A DNA stretch of 64,000 nt from Candidatus Bipolaricaulota bacterium (GTDB lineage: Bacteria > Patescibacteriota > Patescibacteriia > UBA11705 > DATKZF01), in the NCBI GenBank assembly GCA_035528115.1, contig DATKZF010000003.1:487089-551088 (forward strand), read 5' to 3'. Positions 2 through 62,217 of the stretch are shown here, in pieces (positions within the stretch are counted from its first letter, which is position 1; every line of letters begins with the position of its first letter). A program made the translations under genes and the position numbers. A model generated the notes under the pieces. The model did no database searches and was not told where the DNA came from. It was given only the letters and a program-made list of their open reading frames with translations.

Positions 2-1342
2 ATCGACGACAAGGTTAAGAAAGGACAAATCATGGCTGACGGACCGTCAACGGAAAACGGTGAATTGGCGCTGGGTCAAAACGTCTTGATCGCTTACATG
101 GCCTGGGAAGGCAACAATTACGAAGACGCCATGATCATTTCGGAAAAATTGGTTCACTTCGATAGATTTTCTTCCGTTCATATCGACAATCATATTATTG
201 ATATTCGAGACACCAAGCTCGGACCCGAACAGGTCACCTCGGATATTCCCAATATCAGCGAAGACAAATTAATGAATCTTGACGCCGAAGGCATCGTGCG
301 CGTGGGCGCGGTGGTTTCTTCCGGCGACATTTTGGTCGGAAAAATCACGCCCAAAGGCGAAACCGAATTATCGGCCGAGGAAAAATTGCTGAAAGCCATT
401 TTCGGAGAAAAGGCCAGAGACGTGCGCGACACCTCGCTTCGTTTGGAGCATGGCGAGCACGGCAAAGTGGTGGACGTGAAAATATTTTCTCAGGAAAACG
501 GCGACAAACTGTCTCCGGGAGTACTCAAATCCATTCAGGTTTCCATTGCCAATTTGAGAAAAATTCAGGTCGGCGATAAATTGGCCGGCCGTCACGGCAA
601 CAAAGGCGTCATTTCCAAAATCGTGCCCGTGGAAGACATGCCGTTTAGCGAAGACGGCACGACAATTGACGTTATCTTGACGCCGCTGGGCATTTGCTCC
701 CGTATGAACTTGGGGCAGGTTTTGGAAACCCATTTGGGATTGGCCGCGCAAAAGCTCGGTTATAAAGTGGCCACGCCCGTGTTCAACGGCATTACGGAAA
801 AAACCATCAAAGAAGAATTGGTCAAAGCCGGTTATCCGGAAAGCGGCCAATTGACTTTATATAACGGCAAAACCGGCGAAGCGTTCGAGCATCAGGTGAC
901 GATCGGCATCAATTACATTTTGAAATTGAATCACATGGTGGAAGACAAGATTCACCAAAGATCAATCGGCCCTTACTCGCTGATCACTCAGCAGCCGCTC
1001 GGAGGCAAAGCGCAATTCGGCGGACAAAGATTCGGAGAAATGGAAGTCTGGGCGCTCGAAGCTTATGGCGCGGCGCACACTTTGCAGGAAATTTTGACCA
1101 TTAAATCCGATGACGTTGTGGGCAGAGCCAAAGCTTACGAATCAATTATCAAGGGAGAGCCGATTAAGCGGCTGAACGTGCCCGAATCCTTCAATGTCTT
1201 GGTCAGAGAATTGAAAGGCCTGTGCTTGGATGTCGAATTGCTCAAAGACGGAAAATCCATCGACTTGGAAAAGGAAGAAGAGTTTAGGGACAGAAGCGAG
1301 AGGCATCAACAAGTCGAGACCGCCAAAGAGCCGGTCGAGTAA
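2..1342 (+). CDS. rpoB: DNA-directed RNA polymerase subunit beta, C-terminal portion (5' end lies outside the window)
   Basis: Colinear with the E. coli RpoB C-terminus: [61 protein letters not shown]. The reading frame is open from position 2. Confidence 0.95.
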
Positions 1343-17144: not shown

Positions 17145-17762
17145 ATGCATTACGAACTAATACTTCAAAAAAAAGGATATCACTTCATCGCCGGCATTGA
17201 TGAAGCCGGACGAGGGGCCTGGGCGGGCCCCTTGTTTGTCGGCGCCGTGATTTTGCCGCTGGGCGAATTGAAAAAATTCAAAGGCGTCGGGGATTCGAAA
17301 AAATTGACCGCGGAAAAAAGAGAAATTTGCGCCAAAACAATAAAAAAATATTGCGTGGCCTGGGCGATCGGCAGGGTCGAGTCCGGTGAAATCGATTCAT
17401 TGGGACTTCAAAACGCTCATTTGCTGGCGGTCGAAAGAGCGGTATTGGGGCTGGGCATCATGCCCGATTATGTGTTGGTTGACCGCATCGCCAAAGTGAA
17501 ATTTCCCATGCCTTTTGAAAACGTGATTAAAGGCGATGATAAATTCATTTCCGTGGGCGCGGCTTCGATTATGGCCAAGGTGGAAAGAGACGCTGAAATG
17601 AGCGAGCTGGAAAATAAATATCCCAATTATCATTTTAAAGAGCATAAAGGTTATGGCACAGGAGAGCACATGGACGAAATAGCCAAATTCGGCTTGTGCG
17701 ACCTTCATCGACGCTTGTTTTCCCCGATTAAGGAAATAGATAAAAAAATGCAGTTGTTTTAA
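17145..17762 (+). CDS. rnhB: Ribonuclease HII
   Basis: IAGIDEAGRGAWAGPLFVGAV matches the RNase HII active-site region (DEAGRG). Confidence 0.9.
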   Translation: MHYELILQKKGYHFIAGIDEAGRGAWAGPLFVGAVILPLGELKKFKGVGDSKKLTAEKREICAKTIKKYCVAWAIGRVESGEIDSLGLQNAHLLAVERAVLGLGIMPDYVLVDRIAKVKFPMPFENVIKGDDKFISVGAASIMAKVERDAEMSELENKYPNYHFKEHKGYGTGEHMDEIAKFGLCDLHRRLFSPIKEIDKKMQLF

Positions 17763-17782: not shown

Positions 17783-17811
17783 TTGACAAGAAACAAAACC
17801 GGTGTTAATAT
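17783..17811 (+). promoter_or_regulatory. Sigma-70 promoter TTGACA, 17-nt spacer, TAATAT, followed by a GGAGGTGG RBS at 17843-17850
   Basis: Read directly; it drives the GC-rich ORF that starts at 17855. Confidence 0.5.
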
Positions 17812-17854
17812 ATCGACGTCATTTCACATCTCACAATTTGCGTGGAGGTGGCAG

Positions 17855-18274
17855 ATGTCCGATGACAGAAAATTCGAGGAGGCTTTCCCGGGAAGCTATG
17901 GACACTCGCAGCTCGATGAGGAGATTCCGAGCCAAGGTTCGGATCCCGAGTCCATGCTGCTTCAGGGCGGCCGAGAGCTTCGCCTTGACATGATCGGTGA
18001 TGAACTGGTCAGAAGGCTGACGCCGCGGGAGGAAAAGATCCTGCGCATGCGGTTCGGCATCGGCGAGGACGATGAGTCTCCGCTGAAGGACAAGGACATG
18101 TCGGAGGAAACTCGACGGCGCGTGGAATTGATCGAGCAGAAGTCGTTGAGGAATCCCCGCCATCCCTGCCAGAAGAATCAAGCCGAAGCTCGTCGCCGAG
18201 TGCTTGAGCTTTTGGCGAAATCCCGGCGCGATCTCCGCGCAGTTGTCGACATCGAAGAAGAAGCCGTGGGCTAG
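17855..18274 (+). CDS. Small protein made of a sigma-70 (RpoD-type) region 3.2/4 fragment, GC-rich and foreign-looking
   Basis: LTPREEKILRMRFGIG...TRRRVELIEQKSLRNPRHP is near-identical in pattern to RpoD LTAREAKVLRMRFGI...TRERIRQIEAKALRKLRHP, but the HTH turn TLEEVGKQFDV is replaced by EDDESPLKDKDMSEE. GC is about 58% with G/C-ending codons. Confidence 0.5.
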   Translation: MSDDRKFEEAFPGSYGHSQLDEEIPSQGSDPESMLLQGGRELRLDMIGDELVRRLTPREEKILRMRFGIGEDDESPLKDKDMSEETRRRVELIEQKSLRNPRHPCQKNQAEARRRVLELLAKSRRDLRAVVDIEEEAVG

Positions 18275-18296
18275 CAAGCACAGTTGTTAGCCTCTC

Positions 18297-18320
18297 AAGG
18301 ACTCGAAATCGGGTCCTTTT
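18297..18320 (+). terminator. Hairpin GGACTCG-aaat-CGGGTCC (one G-U pair) plus TTTT
   Basis: Directly after the stop of the sigma-fragment ORF. Confidence 0.55.
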
Positions 18321-18375
18321 AAAATTGTTTTAAGCCTTGAAAAAAAGGGTTGATTGGGATAGAATGTTAATGTTG

Positions 18376-18874
18376 GGTTACAAATTACAAATGAAGACGA
18401 ATAACACAAATGGTTACAAATATGCCTAATGATAAGGTCATATATCCGGAATTGAGTTATCAAATAGTCGGAATTTTGTTCGACGTGCACAATGAGATTG
18501 GAGGCAAAGTGAGCGAGAAAGTTATTTCGCGGGCAATCGCGTCGGATTTGGATAACTGTCATCTCAAGTATGAAAAAGAAATACAGGTCCCCGTTTTCTA
18601 CAAAGGAAAGCAGATTGGATATTATTTTCTTGATTTCTTAATAGAGGGGAAAATTGTGCTGGAAATAAAAAAGGGCTTTCGATTCGCAAATAAAGATTTT
18701 GATCAAATACATGATTATTTGCAGTCAACCGGTTTGAAATTGGGCATCTTGGCGATATTTTCGGACACAAAAGTAAAATTCAGAAGAATACTAAACGAGT
18801 ATTAATTTTTATTAAACAATGAATACAAATTTGTATTCATTTGTAACATTTGTACGGATTTGTAATTTGTAACC
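18376..18874. mobile_element. Mini-cassette bounded by perfect 16-bp inverted repeats GGTTACAAATTACAAA (18376-18391 and 18859-18874) carrying one GxxExxY-family gene
   Basis: Left inverted repeat GGTTACAAATTACAAA; right TTTGTAATTTGTAACC is its exact reverse complement. An 18-bp palindrome GAATACAAATTTGTATTC sits at the 3' side of the cargo. Confidence 0.6.
18410..18805 (+). CDS. GxxExxY-family small protein (TIGR04256-like, putative PD-(D/E)XK fold)
   Basis: Family-typical core VPVFYKGKQIG...DFLIEGKIVLEIK...QIHDYLQSTGLKLGILAIF and an N-terminal G..SE.V helix. Confidence 0.6.
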   Translation: MVTNMPNDKVIYPELSYQIVGILFDVHNEIGGKVSEKVISRAIASDLDNCHLKYEKEIQVPVFYKGKQIGYYFLDFLIEGKIVLEIKKGFRFANKDFDQIHDYLQSTGLKLGILAIFSDTKVKFRRILNEY

Positions 18875-22977: not shown

Positions 22978-23135
22978 ATGTCCGGGAATCGTCTTTGGCG
23001 ATCCCCGGAATTGACGCGCGCCGAATTTGCGATTTCGGTAAAGGCCGCAGTGAAAGATTCCTTTCCCGCCCCCTTTCAGTGCCGGTACTTGGAACCTTTC
23101 GGGCACCAGATCGGTTGGGGTTTTAGCCCTGGTGG

Positions 23136-23408
23136 CTACCGGTTTTTGAATGCCAGCAGCACGCACAACCAATAGACGATCGCCACGCGCTTTGCGATTT
23201 CGCGTTTGCGGATGTCCATGGCGGTCCTTTCCCAGCCTCCGCCGGACAAGCCGGCGCTGCCCGCTCTAAAGCCGCCCTTGGGCGACGACTCGGCGGCCAC
23301 GTAGCGGGAGAGAGATTGTCTCTCCGGCGTACCGGTTAAGGCCTCCTTTCCGGCTTCGGTTGTGCGATTGGCAACTTTGCCCGGCACAACGGATTTTTCT
23401 GGGTCCAT
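23136..23408 (-). CDS. Hypothetical GC-rich small protein with a single C-terminal TM anchor
   Basis: RBS-like GAGGG upstream of ATG (MDPEKS...); C-terminus KRVAIVYWLCVLLAFKNR is hydrophobic; high-GC3 codons. Coding status is uncertain. Confidence 0.25.
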   Translation of the reverse strand: MDPEKSVVPGKVANRTTEAGKEALTGTPERQSLSRYVAAESSPKGGFRAGSAGLSGGGWERTAMDIRKREIAKRVAIVYWLCVLLAFKNR

Positions 23409-23586
23409 TCCTAGACCCTCAGGACCTCGGAGCTCACTTGAATCCTCCTGTCGATCTGGGCGCACGTGTCTGTATTATTATAACATAAAAAAGCGTAAAA
23501 ATTCGCAAAAAAATGCTCATTGGGAGTTGTTTTTATTTTTGGAGTAATTGCGGTATAATGTTTGTGCTAAAAACTTTCTGAATATT

Positions 23587-26379: not shown

Positions 26380-26604
26380 CATGGATCACATATCATGGAG
26401 CACATAGCACGTATCATGCCTGCCCGCCGTAGCTTAAGAGCGAAGGCGGGGATCACCTATCATGAAACAAAAGAACATGAGACGGAAAAACAGAGAAACA
26501 AGGCCGACGCTGTTGTCATCTCGACCGAAGCGGAGAGATCTTTTCCTAATTCTTCGGAATAGATTTCTCCATCCCCAATTTCTAATTTCCGGTTTCTTAT
26601 TACC
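26380..26604. repeat. Dispersed intergenic repeat, copy A, directly upstream of the GT4 gene at 26624
   Basis: Shares a roughly 110-nt core with 46322-46547 (CATGAAAC..AAGGCCGACGCTGTTGTCATCTCGACC..GAAGCGGAGAGATCTTTTCCTAATTCTTCGGAATAGATTTCTCC..TCCGGTTTC..ATTACC) and an ATCATGGATCAC head that also appears inverted at 40565-40612. Confidence 0.65.
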
Positions 26605-32644: not shown

Positions 32645-33752
32645 AACGCGCGTTCGCGCGTTCGTCCGCGCGCCAAATCAAAAAGCGGCCATGAAAGCCG
32701 CTTTTAGATTAGCATCAACCTGCCATTTTACCCGATCAAGATGCTGTTGCCAAAAAACTGGATAGTTGGAGAGAGATTTAAAGAACATCTATCTCGTTTT
32801 TGGCAAACAGTATGCTGACAGGGTAAATCGCTCGCGAATCCTACCCGAATTTAACTATACGATGTATGACTTATTACTTGTAACTTCAAATCGTTAATTA
32901 AATTCGGGTAGGCGGGAAAAACTAGTTTGTTTTTCCCACCGGCTTCACCACTTACGGTAGGTTACACCGCCTTGCTTTGCTGGCGAGGCTGACGAGGGCC
33001 GGACACACGTATGCCCGGGAGCGGTTATTAACGGATCTCTCCGTCACTCCAGAGAAAGGCTACACCCCAAGGATTACTCCCCGAAAGGTTCACCAGCCCG
33101 TTGGAGCCAACCGCTGCGCAAAGTCCCCCGGATGGACAATCAGCGCTGTCGCGCCTTCTTCACGTCGGGCGCCCATCACGGTCATACCCAACGCTGCCTC
33201 ATTATGAGCATCTCTACTCCATCTCCTTGTAGATTGCCCTTGCCATGGAACCGGTCTTCGAAATTAGTGAAGACCGTCCCCCAAGTTTTTTATCTTGTTA
33301 CACAACTCCTATGGCCGGCCGTTTTTCAAATAGGTCCGGCTTGTTCGAAGCGTTGCAAGGGGTGGGGACTCTTCAGGGAGAGATCCCCTGTGGCGGATGA
33401 GCGATGGACCCTTTTTGGCGTTGGAGCTGAAAGCTCCTGGGTCCTGCGGTCGCGTGTCGCGCGACGCTTCATCCGCCGTTTCCGGTCCGGCCATCCTGAT
33501 GGCCGGCTAGCCTCGTTCTGGGCGCACCCGGCTAGCTGGGCGCGTTCTTTATGAGCACTGATACTCTCCTTTCTCGGTGATAAAGAATGAGCGCGCGCTC
33601 CCTTAGCCTATTTGGCCGAAGGAGCCGCCGTACGCGCTCAGCCAGCCTGAGTCTCCAAGTTAATCTTCGAAAATCAGGTTGGCCGGAGACGTCCTAGGTG
33701 AGGTTGTCTCCGATGGGGGAAAGAACGAGGAGGGGTGGGGTGGGGGAAAGGG

Positions 33753-34100
33753 TTACTTCTTCTTGCTCTTCTTGCCCTTCTCCTTACGAGCCTGGGACTG
33801 CAGCCCGGTCTGGCCCGACTCGGAGCCCTTGCTCTGGAGTCGGATCTCGCGATCGTTGTCGGCCCGCGCCTTGCGCCGCGCCTCCTGGTCCGCCGGCCGT
33901 CCCTTGCGGACGCCGCCGGGGCGGTTGAATTCCATTTTTCGGCCCCCGCTCCAACTGCCCCAGGGGGAGCTGACGGAGGATCGTCGGTTGCACTCCTCGA
34001 TGCGCTTGAGCACGAGCGGTGGTGGCTCCACGGAGACGAGCACGCATTTCGTCTGGGTCGGGGTGGGATCGGATTCTTTCGTGATCGCAACCATGTTCAT
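33753..34100 (-). CDS. Hypothetical small basic protein (115 aa) with a lysine-rich C-terminus inside a GC-rich islet
   Basis: Strong AAGGAGGG RBS 5 nt upstream of ATG and a TTGACA -35-like element; the sequence is not low-complexity except for the KEKGKKSKKK tail. Confidence 0.35.
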   Translation of the reverse strand: MNMVAITKESDPTPTQTKCVLVSVEPPPLVLKRIEECNRRSSVSSPWGSWSGGRKMEFNRPGGVRKGRPADQEARRKARADNDREIRLQSKGSESGQTGLQSQARKEKGKKSKKK

Positions 34101-34939
34101 TCCCTCCTTGGGGTGGGGTGGTTGTGTGTCCCTGAAACTACGATGTAGATGAGCGTGCTAAAGAAAGATTTGAAGGGTCATATAAATTAATAATTACCCT
34201 TGTCTTTTTTAGCTTTCTCTCTCCTCTACATCCCGGTTTCAGCGACTCTTTAAGGAAAAAAATAGACAGAAAAGATTCTGCCAGATCGCGAATCACAGCT
34301 TCGCGATAGCCTTGAACGAAAATTATGCTTTGTTCAGGGCTTGGCTGACTCTCTCCCAAAAGTCCGCTTGGTTTTCAAAGTTTCATTGTGACTTGGTATT
34401 ATATCATAATTTAATGAATTTGTCAAGCGTGGACGTAAAAAGGATTCATATTTTATCTAAAATTACATAAATCAAGAAGGATTATTAAGAGATGGCTTGT
34501 TTCGTCTCGCGCATTTGGCGCTTCGACGACCCACTTTTTGACGCCAAAAAGTGGGCAACCTGCCTGCCGGCAGGCAGGAAAGCGCTGGGGGAAAATGATT
34601 CGTAAAGCGACAATTTAATGTTAACAATCTCGCGACGGCTCAGCATTTTCCCCCAGACCCCCGGTGCTATCCGCGCGTGATTCGTCGATATTAGGACTTT
34701 TGCCTTTTATCTGCCTCATTGTTTTACCAAGGTTCGATTTTAACCGGCCAAAGAGGCAGGTAGCCGGCTACCTGCTTTTGAGAAATTAAGGAACGCTGAG
34801 GAGACCCCTGACGAATGCAAGGGGACGACGAAGCGAACCGGACGTTAGTCCATAACCTGCCCCCCGACCTTTAAAATAAGCAATAAAAAGGGAGGGGGGA
34901 CAAGGGGGGAGGGTTAAAATTATGAGGTTTCATGGCATA

Positions 34940-36412: not shown

Positions 36413-37321
36413 AGCATGGGTTTTATTGGAAGATAAATGACTACTATCATTATGCCAGTTTTATCGGTGTCTGGCAATGTCATTTGGCTTCCAATGATCT
36501 AAATAAGCCTGTAAGCCGAATTCTGTGGCCTCCGCCAAGAATTCGAACGGCAGATTTTAGAACCTGTCGGCCGAAGCCTTGGCGAAGGTCGATGACCATC
36601 TATCTAGGTCCGACATTGCTGCCGGACTCAAGCGAGCTACCAAATTTGCTCTTGCACCTGATAGGGTTTACCACGCTTGGACGTTGCCGTCCAAGGAGAG
36701 AAGTATGATTTAAATGGTCACGTGAACAATTTAACTTTTTTTCTTCTCACTTTTCACCTTTGGCCGCGAAGCGGCCACCCTGAGTGAGGAGCAGTGCGAC
36801 GAATCGAAGGGTGTAGATGTATCCTTCGACTCGCTATGCTCGCTCAGGATAGTCGCTTCGCGACTAGTATAGTCTCTGTGGCACTGGCCGTCGGCCGAGT
36901 TTCTTTCGACCCTATCTCAGAAATAATTTTCTATTCAATTGGCGAATTTAGGCTGCAAATTGTTCAAAACTCGTCACCATAATAATCATATTATGCTTCT
37001 TCGTCTTTCACAATTTTCGCTCTAAATTCGCTCAATCTCATTACGAAACTTATGTCTGAGATAGGGTCTTGTTATCTCGGCATCGCCCGGACGTTATCCG
37101 GTATCATTTTTTATGGTGTTCGGACTTTCCTCCCTCCTTCGCTCCTTGCTGCGCTCGAGCTTCGAAGGGCAAGCCCTCTTAGTTTGCGAGGGGGGTTGCC
37201 GTTCTTGGCTTCAAACAAAGCAAGGAGCGAAGAAGAGCGGTCATCCGGCTTATTCAGATCAATGAAATTATAGCAAAAAAATGATGAAATGTCAATGGTA
37301 ATTTAAAAACCGCCAGCATGG

Positions 37322-38674
37322 CTAGCGGTTGAGGAAGTTACGAAAAGCGTCGGTCACGACCATCTGCTCGAGGCGCTCGCCACAAGTGATGATGCCAAGC
37401 TGCGCGTCCGGGAAGTGTGAGGTCGAGGAATTTGTGACTCCAAGCAGGAAGTCCTGCGCCTCGTCCGGCAGTTGACTGAAACTTCTGGCCGCGCCCGTCC
37501 CGCTTTTCCAGCCGTTGAAATTGACAACGTCGGGCTCGCACAGGTCCCAGTCAGCAATGCGAGCGGGCGGGTACGCGAAGCGCTCGCCGCGAAGTTGCCA
37601 GGTATCCACGACCGGGATTTTAGGTTGACTGTCGAGCACGTCCAGTTTCGTAAAGCACAGGAAGTTCGGCGCGCAGAGCCGAATTCCTTGTCGAAGGAGC
37701 GGGAGATTGAGCGGGCCGCAACGTCGAGGGCGTCCGGTGGTGACGCCGAATTCCGCGCCGCGTTGTCGCAGAGACTCTCCGGTGTCGGATTTGTCTTCGC
37801 CGGGAAAAGGCCCGCCGCCGACTCTGGTGGCGTAGAGCTTGGATACTCCGATCGTGAACGCGATGTCCATTATCGTCAATCCCGCTTGCGCGATCAGGCC
37901 GGCTGCGGTCGTTGATGACGAAGTGACGTACGGGTACGTCCCGAACAGCCGATCAAGCAGAGCTCCTTGGCCCGGTTCGATCAGGCCGATGTCGCCGTTG
38001 CGTTTGATTTCATCGATTACTCGTAAGGTGTCCGTGACGCGACCGCCCAGCTTTCGGACGGAGTCAATGACATTGTCCACTTCGCATTTTTCTTCGGGCC
38101 GGCCGCAGCCGCGCAAGATGGCGTTGGCGAGGTCGTACGCCAGCTTGAGCCTCTGTTCAGCTTTGTCGCCGCTCTCAAGCAGTTCAAAGAATGTCGGTCC
38201 GACCCGGAATGCCTGCATGGCGTAGGTCGGGCCGATGCCGCTGCCCGTGGTGCCGATACGGTCATTGCCCATGAGAATTTCGATGGCCGCTTCGACCGAA
38301 CGATAGATCGGCAAAACGACTTGAGCGCGACCGTCGATCAAGGTTGGCGAGACGTTGACTCCTTGGGCGCGCAGGTCCGTCATTTCTTTTTTCAGCGCGA
38401 CTGGGTCGATGACCATGCCAGCTGCCAAAATGGCCGTGATGTCGGGATCGAACACGGCCAGCGGCAGGTAATGGCTTTTTTGGAGTCGACCGAAGCTGTC
38501 TCTGTACGAATGGCCGGCATTGCCGCCGCCATTGGGCCGAATGGCCCATTTGATGCGCGGGTTGTGGCTCTGCTTCATCAGCTGAGCCAGACGCAGAGAG
38601 ACAGACCCTTTGCCGTTGTCTCCGAACGTCAAATCGGAGAGTAAAATGAACCTGCCGCGAAGATTAGGCATCAT
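37322..38674 (-). CDS. purA: Adenylosuccinate synthetase-family protein, divergent and GC-rich
   Basis: P-loop GDNGKGS (PurA GDEGKGK), GGGNAGHS (catalytic His), TTGSGIGPTY, YATRVGGGPFP, GVTTGRPRRCG, and the GTP-specificity motif TKLD. About 62% GC, in contrast to the AT-rich promoter TTGACT-17-TAAACT upstream. Confidence 0.8.
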   Translation of the reverse strand: MMPNLRGRFILLSDLTFGDNGKGSVSLRLAQLMKQSHNPRIKWAIRPNGGGNAGHSYRDSFGRLQKSHYLPLAVFDPDITAILAAGMVIDPVALKKEMTDLRAQGVNVSPTLIDGRAQVVLPIYRSVEAAIEILMGNDRIGTTGSGIGPTYAMQAFRVGPTFFELLESGDKAEQRLKLAYDLANAILRGCGRPEEKCEVDNVIDSVRKLGGRVTDTLRVIDEIKRNGDIGLIEPGQGALLDRLFGTYPYVTSSSTTAAGLIAQAGLTIMDIAFTIGVSKLYATRVGGGPFPGEDKSDTGESLRQRGAEFGVTTGRPRRCGPLNLPLLRQGIRLCAPNFLCFTKLDVLDSQPKIPVVDTWQLRGERFAYPPARIADWDLCEPDVVNFNGWKSGTGAARSFSQLPDEAQDFLLGVTNSSTSHFPDAQLGIITCGERLEQMVVTDAFRNFLNR

Positions 38675-38751
38675 GGCCTCTCTTTCTTTGTATGTCATTG
38701 CCCATGGAAAGTTTAGAAGCTTTGAGGAGAAAAGTCAATCATTGCGCAATT

Positions 38752-46326: not shown

Positions 46327-46547
46327 ATCATGGATCATGAAACGAAAGAATATGAGACAGAAAGACAGAGAAACAAGGCCGACGCTGTTGTCATCTCGAC
46401 CTCTCGACCTTGCTCGGGGCAGGCCGAAGCGGAGAGATCTTTTCCTAATTCTTCGGAATAGATTTCTCCAACCCCAATTTTTCCGCCAAAGGCGGATCCG
46501 CCTCGGGCGGATAATTTCCGGTTTCCGGTTTCCGGTTTCTCATTACC
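46322..46547. repeat. Dispersed intergenic repeat, copy B (with insertions), upstream of porA
   Basis: Same core as 26380-26604; it carries an extra (TTTCCGG)x3 tract. Confidence 0.65.
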
Positions 46548-59013: not shown

Positions 59014-60003
59014 TTAGGCGGCAAAATCGAAAATTTGCTTTTCGATGTCCGCTCGAGGGATCAGGCCTTCCCCGGACTGATTGACCAGCCTTAGAATGGT
59101 CTGGTTGTCGAGTCCGTTACTTGCGAGAATCTCTTTCGCTTCCTTCCTGCTTAGGATACCTTGTCCGCGCAGACTGGACATGGCCTTGAGCAGAGTCTCT
59201 TTGTCTTCTCCCACGGCGGCCATGAAGGCGGATAGAATCCATTTGCTGGTTTGCTTGATGGAAAGCAGGGCGTCGCAAATTCTGTCCACGTTCCAGTTGT
59301 TTGCCAGCAATGAAACGACGATTCTGCCCGCAGTCCACTTGGCCGGTCCGAACAGCTGGCGATAGAGGTGCGAAGCGATATTGTAGTCGCTCCACTTGGC
59401 GCTCTCCAGGGCGCGGATTATTCTCGAATCTTTCCAGCCGGCCGCTTGCAGCGCTCGGAACGTTTGATCCGGACCGATTTTCGTGTCCCCGAACGCCTTG
59501 ACGATCCGCATGTCGCCCCAGCCGATGATCGAAAGGATGGAAACAATGATGTCAAAGGTGTCGAATTTCCAAATGTTGGCAACTAGCTCGTCGTCCGTCC
59601 AGACTCGCGACAAGGCTTTGCAGATCCGACGCAAGGCTTTTTTTCGCGTCTTGTCCGGCAATTTCGTGCCCGGCTTGTCCTCCGTGAAGCCGATCTGGTA
59701 GCACAGGAGAAAACTATCGTGCAGAAAATACAAGCCATTTGCGACCATAAGCAGTTCCACCAGGTATTTTTTCTCAATGGCGGAGTGCCGCAAGGCGCGC
59801 ACGATCTTGGCGTCGAACCAGCCGGCCGCGAAAAGGTCATTGACGATCTCGATGTTTCGCCTTTTCTCTTCAAGCGACCCCGGGGTTTTGGAAAAACCCA
59901 GGCCGGCGAGCAGGGTTTGATCGATTCTGGCGATATTTGCCGGGTGTTTTTTCGCCAGTCTGTCCGCTTCGCGCAGAGTTTTTTTCAGTATCGCCAAATC
60001 CAT
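59014..60003 (-). CDS. Repeat protein with 6 or more copies of a roughly 30-aa motif a-G-W-x-D-x-R-I-(V/I)-R-A-L; function unknown
   Basis: AAGWFDAKIVRALRHS, IIGWGDMRIVKAFGDT, AAGWKDSRIIRALESA, KWSDYNIASHLYRQL, KWTAGRIVVSLLAN, NWNVDRICDALLSI; AAAAAGGAGGGGGAC RBS before ATG. Confidence 0.45.
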   Translation of the reverse strand: MDLAILKKTLREADRLAKKHPANIARIDQTLLAGLGFSKTPGSLEEKRRNIEIVNDLFAAGWFDAKIVRALRHSAIEKKYLVELLMVANGLYFLHDSFLLCYQIGFTEDKPGTKLPDKTRKKALRRICKALSRVWTDDELVANIWKFDTFDIIVSILSIIGWGDMRIVKAFGDTKIGPDQTFRALQAAGWKDSRIIRALESAKWSDYNIASHLYRQLFGPAKWTAGRIVVSLLANNWNVDRICDALLSIKQTSKWILSAFMAAVGEDKETLLKAMSSLRGQGILSRKEAKEILASNGLDNQTILRLVNQSGEGLIPRADIEKQIFDFAA

Positions 60004-60078
60004 GTCCCCCTCCTTTTTGCCGTACAGATAAGTTAGCATGAATCCATAATTAAAAAAAGCCGGCTTGGTGAAGCTGGC

Positions 60079-61129: not shown

Positions 61130-61663
61130 TTACTCCTTCTTGCGGCCGGCGTCCTTTTCCGGAGCCTCTTCGAGAACCTTGATCTTGGTGATGGCCTCGA
61201 AGGCCGGCTCGAGCTGCTGGAGCAGGGTTGCCATCATTTCACGGCCCGTGCCCTGCATGCAGTACTCGGCCACCTTGGCCACGGTCTCGCAGTTGGGGAT
61301 GAACCCGTACTGCGTGGACAGGTAGTGCACCGCGCTGGCCACGAACAGCGGCTCGAGCATGTGGCCGAGCGCGGTGTCGAAGAACTTGGGGTAGGTGTCG
61401 CCCAAGGTGCGGCGCAAGATGCCAATCATCAAGTCGCACGCTTCTTCGGATCCGGCGATCTTGGCGCCGTGCTTGAGGTTGACTGTGACAGCATGGAGAG
61501 TCTGATTGGGCTTGTCGGTCATGCTGGACATGGTGGTTTCTCCTTGGGTGGTGGTTTGTTTATCGGTCTGCGGTATTTCGCCGAGCGCCTGGGCTGCGTC
61601 CTCTCCTGCAGCCTCGCCGAGCGCTTCGGCGATTCTTTTTTTGACATCCTTGACACTGCTCAT
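61130..61663 (-). CDS. Hypothetical protein (about 177 aa) with very GC-rich, G/C-ending codons; foreign-looking
   Basis: GGAAGGAG RBS. The ATG overlaps the upstream gene's stop (TAATG). Codons are dominated by ctg/gtg/gcc/aag/ttc/cac, unlike host genes. No recognisable domain. Confidence 0.4.
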   Translation of the reverse strand: MSSVKDVKKRIAEALGEAAGEDAAQALGEIPQTDKQTTTQGETTMSSMTDKPNQTLHAVTVNLKHGAKIAGSEEACDLMIGILRRTLGDTYPKFFDTALGHMLEPLFVASAVHYLSTQYGFIPNCETVAKVAEYCMQGTGREMMATLLQQLEPAFEAITKIKVLEEAPEKDAGRKKE

Positions 61664-62217
61664 TAATTTTCTCCTTCCGTTACCGCATCCTCTTTTTTTT
61701 CTTTCTTCTCCTCCTTCTTGGTTCCCTTCTCCTTGCCCCCATTCTTCCTGAGGGCTTTCTCTTTGTCTTGCCGCGAAAGAATGCTCTCCATGAGAGCATC
61801 GATGACGATTTGGACTGATAGCCATGAGTCGCATTGCCCCAGCTCACGAATGACATCATCGTCATCAATGACTGAAGTCTTGACGTGGTCTTTTAGCGAA
61901 TCTCCCAGAATAAGGTAGCATAAGTGGCAATGCGGGCAGATTTTGATGAAGTCGCCGGCAAACTTCATGATGATATAGTAGTGACTCCTGCACTCATAGC
62001 ATGGCTGAGCGGTGAAGAAATGGACAGCCTTGCTTGGGTTGCCGGCCGCGTTTTCGATTCGTCTTTTCAAAGCGCTAATGATGGCTTCTCCATTGATTTC
62101 CCACGGATTCTTGTGTGAAAAATAGTTAATAAGCTCTTTTCTTACGTTAATGTCCATGTCTTGAGCTCCTTTGTCTCCGCGGGTTTTTAAGTTATCAATG
62201 AACATGTAAGGAAGCAT
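61663..62217 (-). CDS. Hypothetical zinc-ribbon protein (CxxC...CxxC) with a K/E-rich C-terminal tail
   Basis: CYECRSHYYIIMKFAGDFIKICPHCH; the tail is KEKGTKKEEKKEKKED. A TATAAT lies immediately upstream of the ATG, so the transcript may be leaderless. Confidence 0.4.
   Translation of the reverse strand: MLPYMFIDNLKTRGDKGAQDMDINVRKELINYFSHKNPWEINGEAIISALKRRIENAAGNPSKAVHFFTAQPCYECRSHYYIIMKFAGDFIKICPHCHLCYLILGDSLKDHVKTSVIDDDDVIRELGQCDSWLSVQIVIDALMESILSRQDKEKALRKNGGKEKGTKKEEKKEKKEDAVTEGEN

Follow-up and report, generated by a model that had tools for sequence, protein, structure and literature searches.

Results

The locus and its expression signals

The window analysed in this study is a 64-kb stretch of bacterial metagenome sequence that carries, between rnhB (RNase HII) and leuS, a 139-residue open reading frame (ORF). 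The product of this ORF is collinear with the C-terminal ~95 residues of primary sigma factors, which make up regions 3.2-4, and we refer to the ORF as the sigma-tail gene. Its neighbours in the window are rnhB, a PDDEXK_3 gene and leuS, and those in related genomes are rnhB, a tiny membrane ORF and leuS. We have very little doubt that it is a real, conserved and sigma-derived gene. The coordinates of its parts are collected in Table 1.

The ORF begins with an ATG at 17855, ends with a TAG at 18272-18274 (139 codons plus the stop) and shows coding periodicity in its guanine-plus-cytosine (GC) content, with 0.68, 0.39 and 0.69 at the three codon positions. The public annotation of this ORF (HUT22610.1) begins at an ATG at 17762 and gives a protein of 170 residues. 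We regard 17855 as the better start, because 17762 precedes the conserved -35 box and the orthologs described below all start ~10-13 residues ahead of a 'PG' motif that they share. The promoter consists of TTGACA (17783-17788), a 17-nucleotide (nt) spacer, the TG of an extended -10 element (17803-17804) and TAATAT (17806-17811), and it scored 10 of 12 against the consensus, plus the TG. A GGAGG Shine-Dalgarno box precedes the ATG, and a purine-rich AGGAGG-like box lies at the equivalent position in every ortholog. Downstream, a hairpin with a 9-bp stem (18297-18318) is followed by TTAAAATTGTTTT. The RNA fold of 18270-18335 has an energy of -22.3 kcal/mol and a significant z score of -4.3; the T-run is interrupted, and a simple terminator scanner gave no call. 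The near-consensus promoter, the ribosome-binding site and the separate terminator that a preliminary description of this DNA had listed were all recovered. On sequence grounds, the ORF is a genuine gene and is very probably expressed.

Homology to primary sigma factors

The RpoD equivalog models of NCBIfam matched residues 49-107 of the product with an expectation value (E) of 4e-9, and the cyanobacterial RpoD/SigA models of the same collection aligned with residues 13-110. Solved RpoD chains in the PDB matched at E 2e-8 to 1e-5. When sigma fragments carrying regions 2-4 were used in tblastn, the sole match in the 64-kb window was 18002-18172, and no full-length rpoD was found there; a separate tblastn alignment covered residues 13-106 of the product. 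A MAFFT alignment with 51 sigma C-termini was collinear from 'SLExPxGxExD..LGDFIED' (the end of region 3.1, followed by 3.2) to the 'LRAFVD' tail, with insertions in the window protein of 4 residues ahead of region 4.1 and of ~17 residues in the tail. The Pfam model Sigma70_r4 (PF04545) reached 15.7 bits (E 0.011), under its gathering threshold of 24.1 bits, and matched residues 53-72 alone, which correspond to region 4.1. The same model reached E ~0.02 in two of the five orthologs. Despite this sub-threshold score, the homology of the product to region 4 is established at the level of sequence comparison.

The identification of the product as a region 3.2/4 segment and nothing else, made in the preliminary description, was borne out by the RpoD matches at E 4e-9 to 2e-8 and by their collinearity. 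The two peptide matches to RpoD quoted there agree with the PDB alignment. As for the similarity expected in profile searches, the RpoD models gave it and Sigma70_r4 did not. No sigma2 domain (regions 2.1-2.4) was found in the product, and the profile and PDB matches were confined to residues 13-110. The protein lacks sigma region 2 and therefore cannot act as a sigma factor.

Syntenic orthologs in related Patescibacteria

Direct searches for close homologs gave none. A word-indexed search of 5.8 billion proteins and an exhaustive search of 1.84 billion cluster representatives each returned the window protein itself and ordinary sigma factors, the latter with 35-60% identity over region 4, which initially made the ORF look like a singleton. 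A scan of metagenomes with the ORF returned rpoD genes only, through the pattern REEKILRM. A scan of species genomes for LeuRS reached 62% identity at most and was not useful for synteny, and a scan of JGI metagenome contigs for RNase HII gave no match. Viral contigs, phage genomes and plasmids were scanned as well and hold no relatives of the gene, so no mobile-element origin is indicated. No convincing direct or inverted repeats flank the gene.

The searches also brought up several other proteins. P0106 (938 residues, metagenomic), from the exhaustive search, contains at least eight tandem degenerate repeats resembling sigma region 4 (LN.REEKIIRLRYGLD...). P0019, P0027, P0048 and ~40 others (207-210 residues, marine metagenomes) combine an N-terminal helix-turn-helix (HTH)-like part with a canonical region 4 and hold no other part of a sigma factor. 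A 142-kb metagenome contig of 45% GC (L084, 2609-4312 and 6550-7968) carries a 567-residue sigma-70-like gene and a second gene 2.2 kb away. From its N-terminal sequence, we take the gene near the sigma-70-like one to resemble archaeal GatE.

The family became visible only through a synteny walk from the RNase HII gene, the billion-scale protein searches having returned ordinary rpoD. RNase HII homologs were found at 64-69% identity to that of the window, one of them labelled 'Patescibacteria group bacterium'. The NCBI label of the window's own genome, 'Bipolaricaulota', is at odds with the Patescibacteria label of this relative and with the gene content (a type IV secretion system pilin, DUF4012 and glycosyltransferases). 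Five relatives (L164, L166, L168, L170 and L172), whose RNase HII proteins are 66-68% identical to the window's, share the gene order infB, thioredoxin, thioredoxin reductase, gdh, rnhB, X, leuS, trmB, trmB. In all five, X is an intact, unannotated ORF of 92-108 codons without Pfam matches that aligns with the window protein. Conservation of the fragment in relatives, which the preliminary description had left to be checked, is thus found in five genomes, in the same slot between rnhB and leuS. The family considered below consists of these six members, all from metagenome assemblies; the C-terminus of the L172 ORF is interrupted by N in the record.

The members carry an N-terminal E-A-F-P-G-type motif and a linker of constant length that ends in P-(E/D)-(E/D). 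All of them contain the block 'L..(E/D)(R/K).LR(M/V).(F/M/L/Y)GI' and the helix '(I/V)..IE(A/R/Q)(R/K)(A/S/C)L', and most end with a '(I/V)(D/E)(S/A)LK' tail. The invariant residues of the family correspond to R560, G564, I565, L573, I590, E591 and L595 of Escherichia coli (Ec) RpoD. A profile built without the window protein, from the five relatives only, matched RpoD region 3.2-4 in hhalign (probability 97.6%, E 2.7e-12) and solved RpoD chains at E 4.4e-12, some of them from profile position 11 onward. Since this relatives-only profile matches sigma C-termini, the whole family is derived from sigma regions 3.2-4.

A more distant relative, whose RNase HII is 50% identical, has a gap of 133 bp between rnhB and leuS and no sigma-tail gene in it; still more distant RNase HII relatives have another gene order and are uninformative. 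The absence of the gene from the 133-bp gap suggests that it arose in, or was acquired by, the ancestor of the clade, and an ancient acquisition by that ancestor is possible. Within the sampled genomes, the family is confined to one clade of Patescibacteria (candidate phyla radiation, CPR).

The slot itself differs among the genomes. A conserved hydrophobic mini-ORF of 39-45 residues (M[DA]SPFWHQ...) lies between rnhB and the sigma-tail gene in relatives (L164, 6652-6789; L166, 6679-6798; L170, 4654-4773; L172, 1038-1157) and is missing from the window. In the window, a PDDEXK_3 gene of the GxxExxY type (18410-18805) sits between the sigma-tail gene and leuS.

Conservation and selection

No variation was seen among the six loci in TTGACA, the 17-nt spacing or TGnTAnnAT, and a strong Shine-Dalgarno sequence follows in each. 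These promoter and Shine-Dalgarno elements are the sole invariant blocks in otherwise diverged upstream DNA. The AGGACTC...GTCCTTTT terminator hairpin is conserved at each of the five readable loci. For the closest pair, L166 and L170, whose sigma-tail proteins are 72% identical, the ratio of nonsynonymous to synonymous divergence (dN/dS) is 0.23 for the sigma-tail gene, 0.13 for rnhB and 0.04 for leuS. In simulations of the neutral decay of a canonical rpoD tail to the observed ~35-40% identity, the frame stayed open in 2-9% of runs, counted before indels, and neutral decay is therefore unlikely.

These data bear on the proposal, also raised in the preliminary description, that the ORF is an expressed remnant of a horizontally acquired rpoD: a functionless, recently acquired piece of a foreign GC-rich gene, transcribed by chance. 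A GC content of 58% against 45%, atypical synonymous codons, the loss of core HTH residues and the failure of searches through 5.8 billion proteins and 1.84 billion cluster representatives to find close homologs would all suit a remnant. A remnant does not account for five syntenic orthologs with a promoter at 6/6 loci and a terminator at the five readable ones, for the dN/dS of 0.23, for a frame that has stayed open through ~60-65% divergence, or for a GC offset of the same kind in 6/6 genes and a shared, family-specific EAFPG motif. We consider this origin barely credible and do not retain it. A pseudogene was likewise rejected on the six intact orthologs, the conserved promoter and terminator and the dN/dS.

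The TTGACA that all six promoters share without change implies that these cells have a canonical region 4.2 elsewhere. It sits presumably in a full-length rpoD outside the window. This has a bearing on another possibility, namely that the sigma-tail protein supplies, in trans, the C-terminal part of a primary sigma factor that has been split, in which case the rpoD of the clade would end before regions 3.2-4. The ORF begins at the 3.1/3.2 boundary, its linker length is preserved, and two-piece sigma factors exist (SigO-RsoA). However, the residues that would read the -35 element vary in the family while its own promoters keep TTGACA invariant, no region-2-only partner is adjacent at any locus examined, and the family evolves far faster than is expected of a part of an essential sigma factor. 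A split sigma factor is accordingly very improbable.

Anatomy of the protein in sigma terms

Region 4 of sigma-70 comprises residues 540-613 and helices H1-H5. H3, a turn and H4 form the HTH for the -35 DNA, and residues in or near H1, H2 and H5 touch the beta-flap (PMC2988021). In the window protein, residues 8-48 carry the family motif EAFPG, a ~18-residue spacer and P-E/D. EAFPG occurs in the window protein as it does in L164 and L168, and the spacer varies in length by no more than one residue. The following region 4.1 is canonical, and conservation drops sharply beyond it: of the sigma positions that are at least 90% conserved, the 4.1 side retains 17 of 18 and the 4.2 side 8 of 22 (Fisher p 2e-4).

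The counterpart of H3 is acidic and degenerate, with a net charge of -6. The T, E, E, V, G and F of sigma are altered there, and L77 (Ec L573) is the sole one kept; in orthologs the stretch is Pro-rich. It stays in register with sigma, apart from a one-residue indel. Substitutions plus an indel of 1-2 residues explain the alignment of the divergent HTH. A compensated frameshift was considered and rejected when the alternative frames of the stretch were read by eye: one has a stop, and the other contains no TLEEVG-like peptide. The HTH turn is damaged, as had been described, but the accompanying idea of a foreign replacement does not hold, since the stretch is collinear with sigma and keeps L77. 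Judged from the alignments, the H3 stretch is diverged from sigma rather than rewritten.

In the H4 counterpart, all family members keep I93, E94 and L98. From the Thermus aquaticus (Taq) sigma4/-35 DNA structure 1KU7, we presume that the bases of the -35 element are read by Ec R584, E585, R588 and Q589. Their counterparts in the window protein are R, R, E and L, and they are variable across the six orthologs. In the alignment of the family, constraint falls on the H1, H2, H4-core and H5 positions and not on the DNA-reading ones. In the tail, MAFFT places LRAVVD onto the sigma tail 'xLRAFVD'. Residues 105-139 form an extension specific to the window protein, the orthologs stopping ~30 residues sooner with '(I/V)(D/E)(S/A)LK'.

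An AlphaFold2 model made with the sigma alignment has helices at residues 31-54 (H1), 57-67 (H2), 84-99 (H4) and 104-138 (tail). Residues 68-83 are coil with a predicted local distance difference test (pLDDT) score of ~50, and the tail helix has a pLDDT of 95-97. The confidence of a single-sequence AlphaFold2 model was below the usable level. The parts predicted to be retained (H1, H2 and the H5-like tail) are those that dock on the beta-flap in sigma-70. The window also encodes a canonical flap-tip helix of the host RNA polymerase beta subunit, near its start; its motif (EEKLLRAIFG) also makes up the beta part of the PDB chimera 3t72. We propose this helix as the docking site, with binding inferred.

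It is possible that the protein is a small regulator or nucleoid-type protein whose remodelled domain has kept an affinity for DNA or RNA, its specificity being new or low, in the manner of stand-alone GerE/LuxR-type or YlxM-type domains. Four of five orthologs are basic (isoelectric point 9.1-10.2, with L172 left out), the H4-like motif IE(A/R)(R/K)(A/S)L is the best-conserved stretch, and an abundant protein is suggested by the strength of the promoters and ribosome-binding sites. On the other hand, the helix that should form the scaffold of the HTH, H3, is Pro-rich or acidic and predicted to be coil, the base-contacting positions vary across the family, and the window member is acidic, with its charge of -6 in the H3 stretch. 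Neither Pfam nor NCBIfam gave a match to LuxR/GerE or other HTH families at E up to 10. We therefore consider a nucleic-acid binder unlikely.

Composition and assembly

The GC content of the sigma-tail ORF is 58.3% against 45.4% for the whole window, with sharp edges at ~17850 and ~18300. GC at third codon positions (GC3) is 0.69 compared with ~0.52 in host genes, and the synonymous codon choice is atypical against the host genes of the window. The same shift is seen throughout the family: at each of the six loci the ORF is 8-20 points richer in GC than the host genes (Table 2) and ~9-17 points richer than the flanking rnhB and leuS. Recoding with host synonymous preferences accounts for about 1/3 to 4/5 of the excess, a share that reflects amino-acid composition. 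A residual GC3 excess is positive in 6/6 orthologs (z 1.1 to 5.1) and greatest in the window and L172. As all six carry the offset, the GC shift belongs to the family as a whole and is no evidence of recent transfer. The preliminary description was right about a GC-rich composition unlike that of the host, and the evidence for recent transfer drawn from it falls away. The excess looks maintained, because synonymous divergence (dS) is already 0.66 for the closest pair.

Table 2. GC content of the sigma-tail ORF and of host genes at the six loci
Locus	ORF GC	Host-gene GC
Window	58%	45%
L164	58%	46%
L166	47%	35%
L168	47%	38%
L170	47%	34%
L172	56%	36%

Selection on mRNA structure as the cause of the GC excess has no consistent support: the sense-strand fold z score of the gene is -3.2 in the window and -0.8, -3.0, -2.0, -3.2 and +0.8 in the relatives. 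A structured RNA in the GC-rich stretch was rejected as the main explanation, as Rfam gave no match and the z score of -3.2 compares with -3.6 for a purA segment and -14.8 for RNase P RNA. A recently transferred island was also rejected; the composition is atypical, but the gene is at the same site in 5/5 relatives examined. An attempt to infer a donor from the GC-rich purA found nearest relatives that are 51-53% identical, and no donor is named.

Other GC-rich segments occur in the window. Three minus-strand genes (37322-38698, 59014-60039 and 61130-61834) have 53-59% GC and a GC3 of 0.68-0.70; one is adenylosuccinate synthetase, and neither of the others belongs to a Pfam family. Enrichment in GC thus recurs among the genes of the host genome. 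An island at 32950-34430, of up to 63% GC and without a match in Pfam or Rfam, is faced by a 12/12 consensus promoter with TG (34426-34398, minus strand) that points into it. Inside it lies a 115-residue ORF (33753-34100, minus strand) that has a strong AAGGAGG site and whose product has a tail rich in Lys. A gap of 57% GC at 22978-23540, after two TrmB-like genes, has no credible ORF family and was negative in Rfam. It contains an 11-bp terminator-like hairpin (23009-22981, minus strand), has a fold z score of ~-3 and showed no DNA similarity to relatives in blastn.

The sharp GC boundaries could be taken for the joints of an assembly chimera, or for contamination with a fragment of another organism's rpoD. 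A 604-kb JGI contig is 100% identical over 20.5 kb including the gene, and a 2.8-kb Logan assembly of SRR8554643 is identical and spans both boundaries. Sequence and flanks agree in these and the 763-kb NCBI assembly, which are independent, the sequence being seen in three samples, and orthologs occupy the same slot elsewhere. The junction at the GC shift that had been feared is contradicted by these assemblies, and an artefact is next to impossible.

Table 1. Features of the sigma-tail locus, with positions in the window
Feature	Positions	Strand	Basis
139-residue ORF, sigma 3.2-4 homolog (stop included)	17855-18274	+	RpoD profile and PDB matches; coding periodicity
Sigma-70-type promoter	17783-17811	+	Consensus scan; bases checked directly; six-locus alignment
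Shine-Dalgarno GGAGG	17844-17848	+	Direct reading; ATG 6 nt downstream
Intrinsic-terminator-like hairpin AAGGACTCG-AAAT-CGGGTCCTT with T-rich tail	18297-18332	+	RNA fold; five-locus conservation
Residues 8-48: region 3.2-like linker, then H1-like helix	17876-17998	+	Collinear with 'SLExPxGxExDxxLGDFIED...'
Residues 49-70: canonical region 4.1 (end of H1 and H2), LTPREEKILRMRFGIG	17999-18064	+	Sole stretch matched by Sigma70_r4
Residues 71-85: acidic, degenerate H3 counterpart (Ec 566-582)	18065-18109	+	Sigma alignment; AlphaFold2
Residues 86-104: counterpart of H4, the -35 recognition helix, TRRRVELIEQKSLRNPRHP	18110-18166	+	Aligned to Ec T583-P601
Residues 105-139: C-terminal tail with ~17-residue insertion and H5-like 'DLRAVVD'	18167-18271	+	MAFFT; AlphaFold2
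Flap-tip helix of the host RNA polymerase beta subunit (3' part of rpoB)	377-415	+	Translation; canonical

Two further observations concern other parts of the window. An RNase P RNA (class A, 142.8 bits) lies at 36496-37181 on the minus strand with a fold z score of -14.8; as it spans 686 nt for a model of 367 positions, it carries large insertions. A repeat of ~125 nt, with 94-98% identity, occurs at 26459-26581 and 46334-46480, upstream of two unrelated genes, one for a glycosyltransferase and one for the alpha subunit of pyruvate:ferredoxin oxidoreductase. The repeat could be a shared leader, a promoter region or a small RNA.

Discussion

In this study, we identified a conserved gene of one Patescibacteria clade whose product corresponds to regions 3.2-4 of a primary sigma factor. 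The data as a whole are best explained by a conserved sigma-derived gene that acts as a clade-specific mimic of region 4, an explanation that we hold to be evenly balanced between right and wrong. The preliminary description had suggested a region-4 module that does not read DNA and acts on the polymerase or on partners of region 4. This appears to be the best reading, and it is strengthened because the gene is conserved and under purifying selection.

In this mechanism, the protein would be made from a strong, constitutive-type promoter. It would occupy sites used by sigma region 4, either the beta-flap tip and the RNA-exit channel of the core polymerase or a region-4-binding protein. The linker, which has the length of region 3.2, possibly lies in the RNA-exit channel as it does in sigma. 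Occupancy without reading of the -35 DNA might then modulate initiation or sigma exchange. Mimicry of region 4 toward the flap or toward a region-4 partner, taken by itself, is a tentative proposal, with somewhat less in its favour than against it. A more specific version, in which an abundant protein threads its sigma-finger-length linker into the RNA-exit channel and itself caps the beta-flap, so that it controls the loading of sigma or vies with NusA-type binders for the flap, is decidedly speculative and rather improbable.

Several points weigh against mimicry of region 4. The AlphaFold2 model is not compact (predicted template modelling score 0.30), and a Foldseek search with it against the PDB found nothing with E below 6. 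Outside the closest pair, the sigma-tail proteins are 21-42% identical between lineages, compared with 66-81% for RNase HII and 73-91% for LeuRS. The isoelectric point is 5.15 for the window protein and 9.1-10.2 for L164, L166, L168 and L170 (L172 was left out, its C-terminus being cut by N). Since charge is not conserved between the acidic window protein and its basic relatives, one shared binding surface fits poorly, and the relatives may bind nucleic acid. Any unattached region-4 domain would face competition from region 4 of the resident sigma factor, which is tethered. Just six family members are known.

It is also conceivable that the protein is a decoy that soaks up proteins directed at region 4, such as AsiA-like inhibitors, Rsd-like anti-sigma factors or activators, and thereby shields the resident sigma factor. 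The window copy keeps the canonical 4.1 surface, and the fast evolution of the family relative to its neighbour genes is compatible with an arms race. T4 AsiA touches regions 4.1 and 4.2 (PMC2988021), which counts in favour of a decoy. However, a decoy should track the conserved surface of sigma, yet most orthologs are strongly diverged in region 4.1 (LPPAVDRGLRVAFGIP). A scan with the defence models of PADLOC gave a sole match, to the generic sigma-domain part of MzaA (E 9e-7, residues 51-105), and the neighbourhood of the gene contains no defence or phage genes. We judge a decoy to be distinctly improbable.

Sigma region 4 is a much-studied hub for the -35 element, the beta-flap, activators, anti-sigma factors and phage proteins. 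We found no free-standing conserved 3.2-4 module described in Pfam, NCBIfam, PHROGs, PADLOC or the full-text literature, Patescibacteria included. What is new is a sigma-derived domain that serves as an independent protein. If the protein does dock on the polymerase, it would represent a novel class of accessory factor, one that mimics part of sigma, and a region-4 mimic subunit would be a form of global transcription control that is not known from any bacterium. The reduced genomes of Patescibacteria encode few known regulators, and the family offers a rare handle on their regulation.

Among known systems, the 3.2-4 module of RpoD/SigA is the closest. The sigma-tail protein resembles it in the collinear ~95 residues, the canonical region 4.1, the H4 core and the H5-like tail. 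It differs in that regions 1-3.1 are absent, and with them the core-binding and -10 functions, in the degenerate H3, the lost -35-contact residues and the 30-residue C-terminal extension, and in that its gene stands apart, with a promoter and a terminator to itself. P0019, P0027 (207 residues) and P0106 likewise put region 4 to use in proteins that are not complete sigma factors. Their architectures are other ones, region 4.2 is canonical in the 207-residue group, and they share neither synteny nor close similarity with the sigma-tail gene. SigO-RsoA of Bacillus subtilis is a two-subunit sigma factor in which one polypeptide has a region-4-like part; its two genes occur as a pair, and DNA is read by the piece with region 4. 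Unlike that system, the sigma-tail gene has no adjacent partner, and its DNA-reading residues are not conserved. GerE/LuxR-type proteins and YlxM/UPF0122 are stand-alone proteins of ~70-110 residues built on a region-4-like helical domain, with a working HTH and Pfam families of their own. The sigma-tail ORF matches none of these at E up to 10 and is closest to group-1 sigma factors. Finally, T4 AsiA, T4 gp33, Rsd, P23-45 gp39 and Xp10 p7 are small regulators at the interface of region 4 and the flap (PMC2988021, PMC3950348, PMC3985653). The likeness lies in small size and in the proposed site at the region-4/flap-tip interface. These regulators are not sigma homologs and have unrelated folds, whereas the sigma-tail protein would act there by mimicry of sigma itself.

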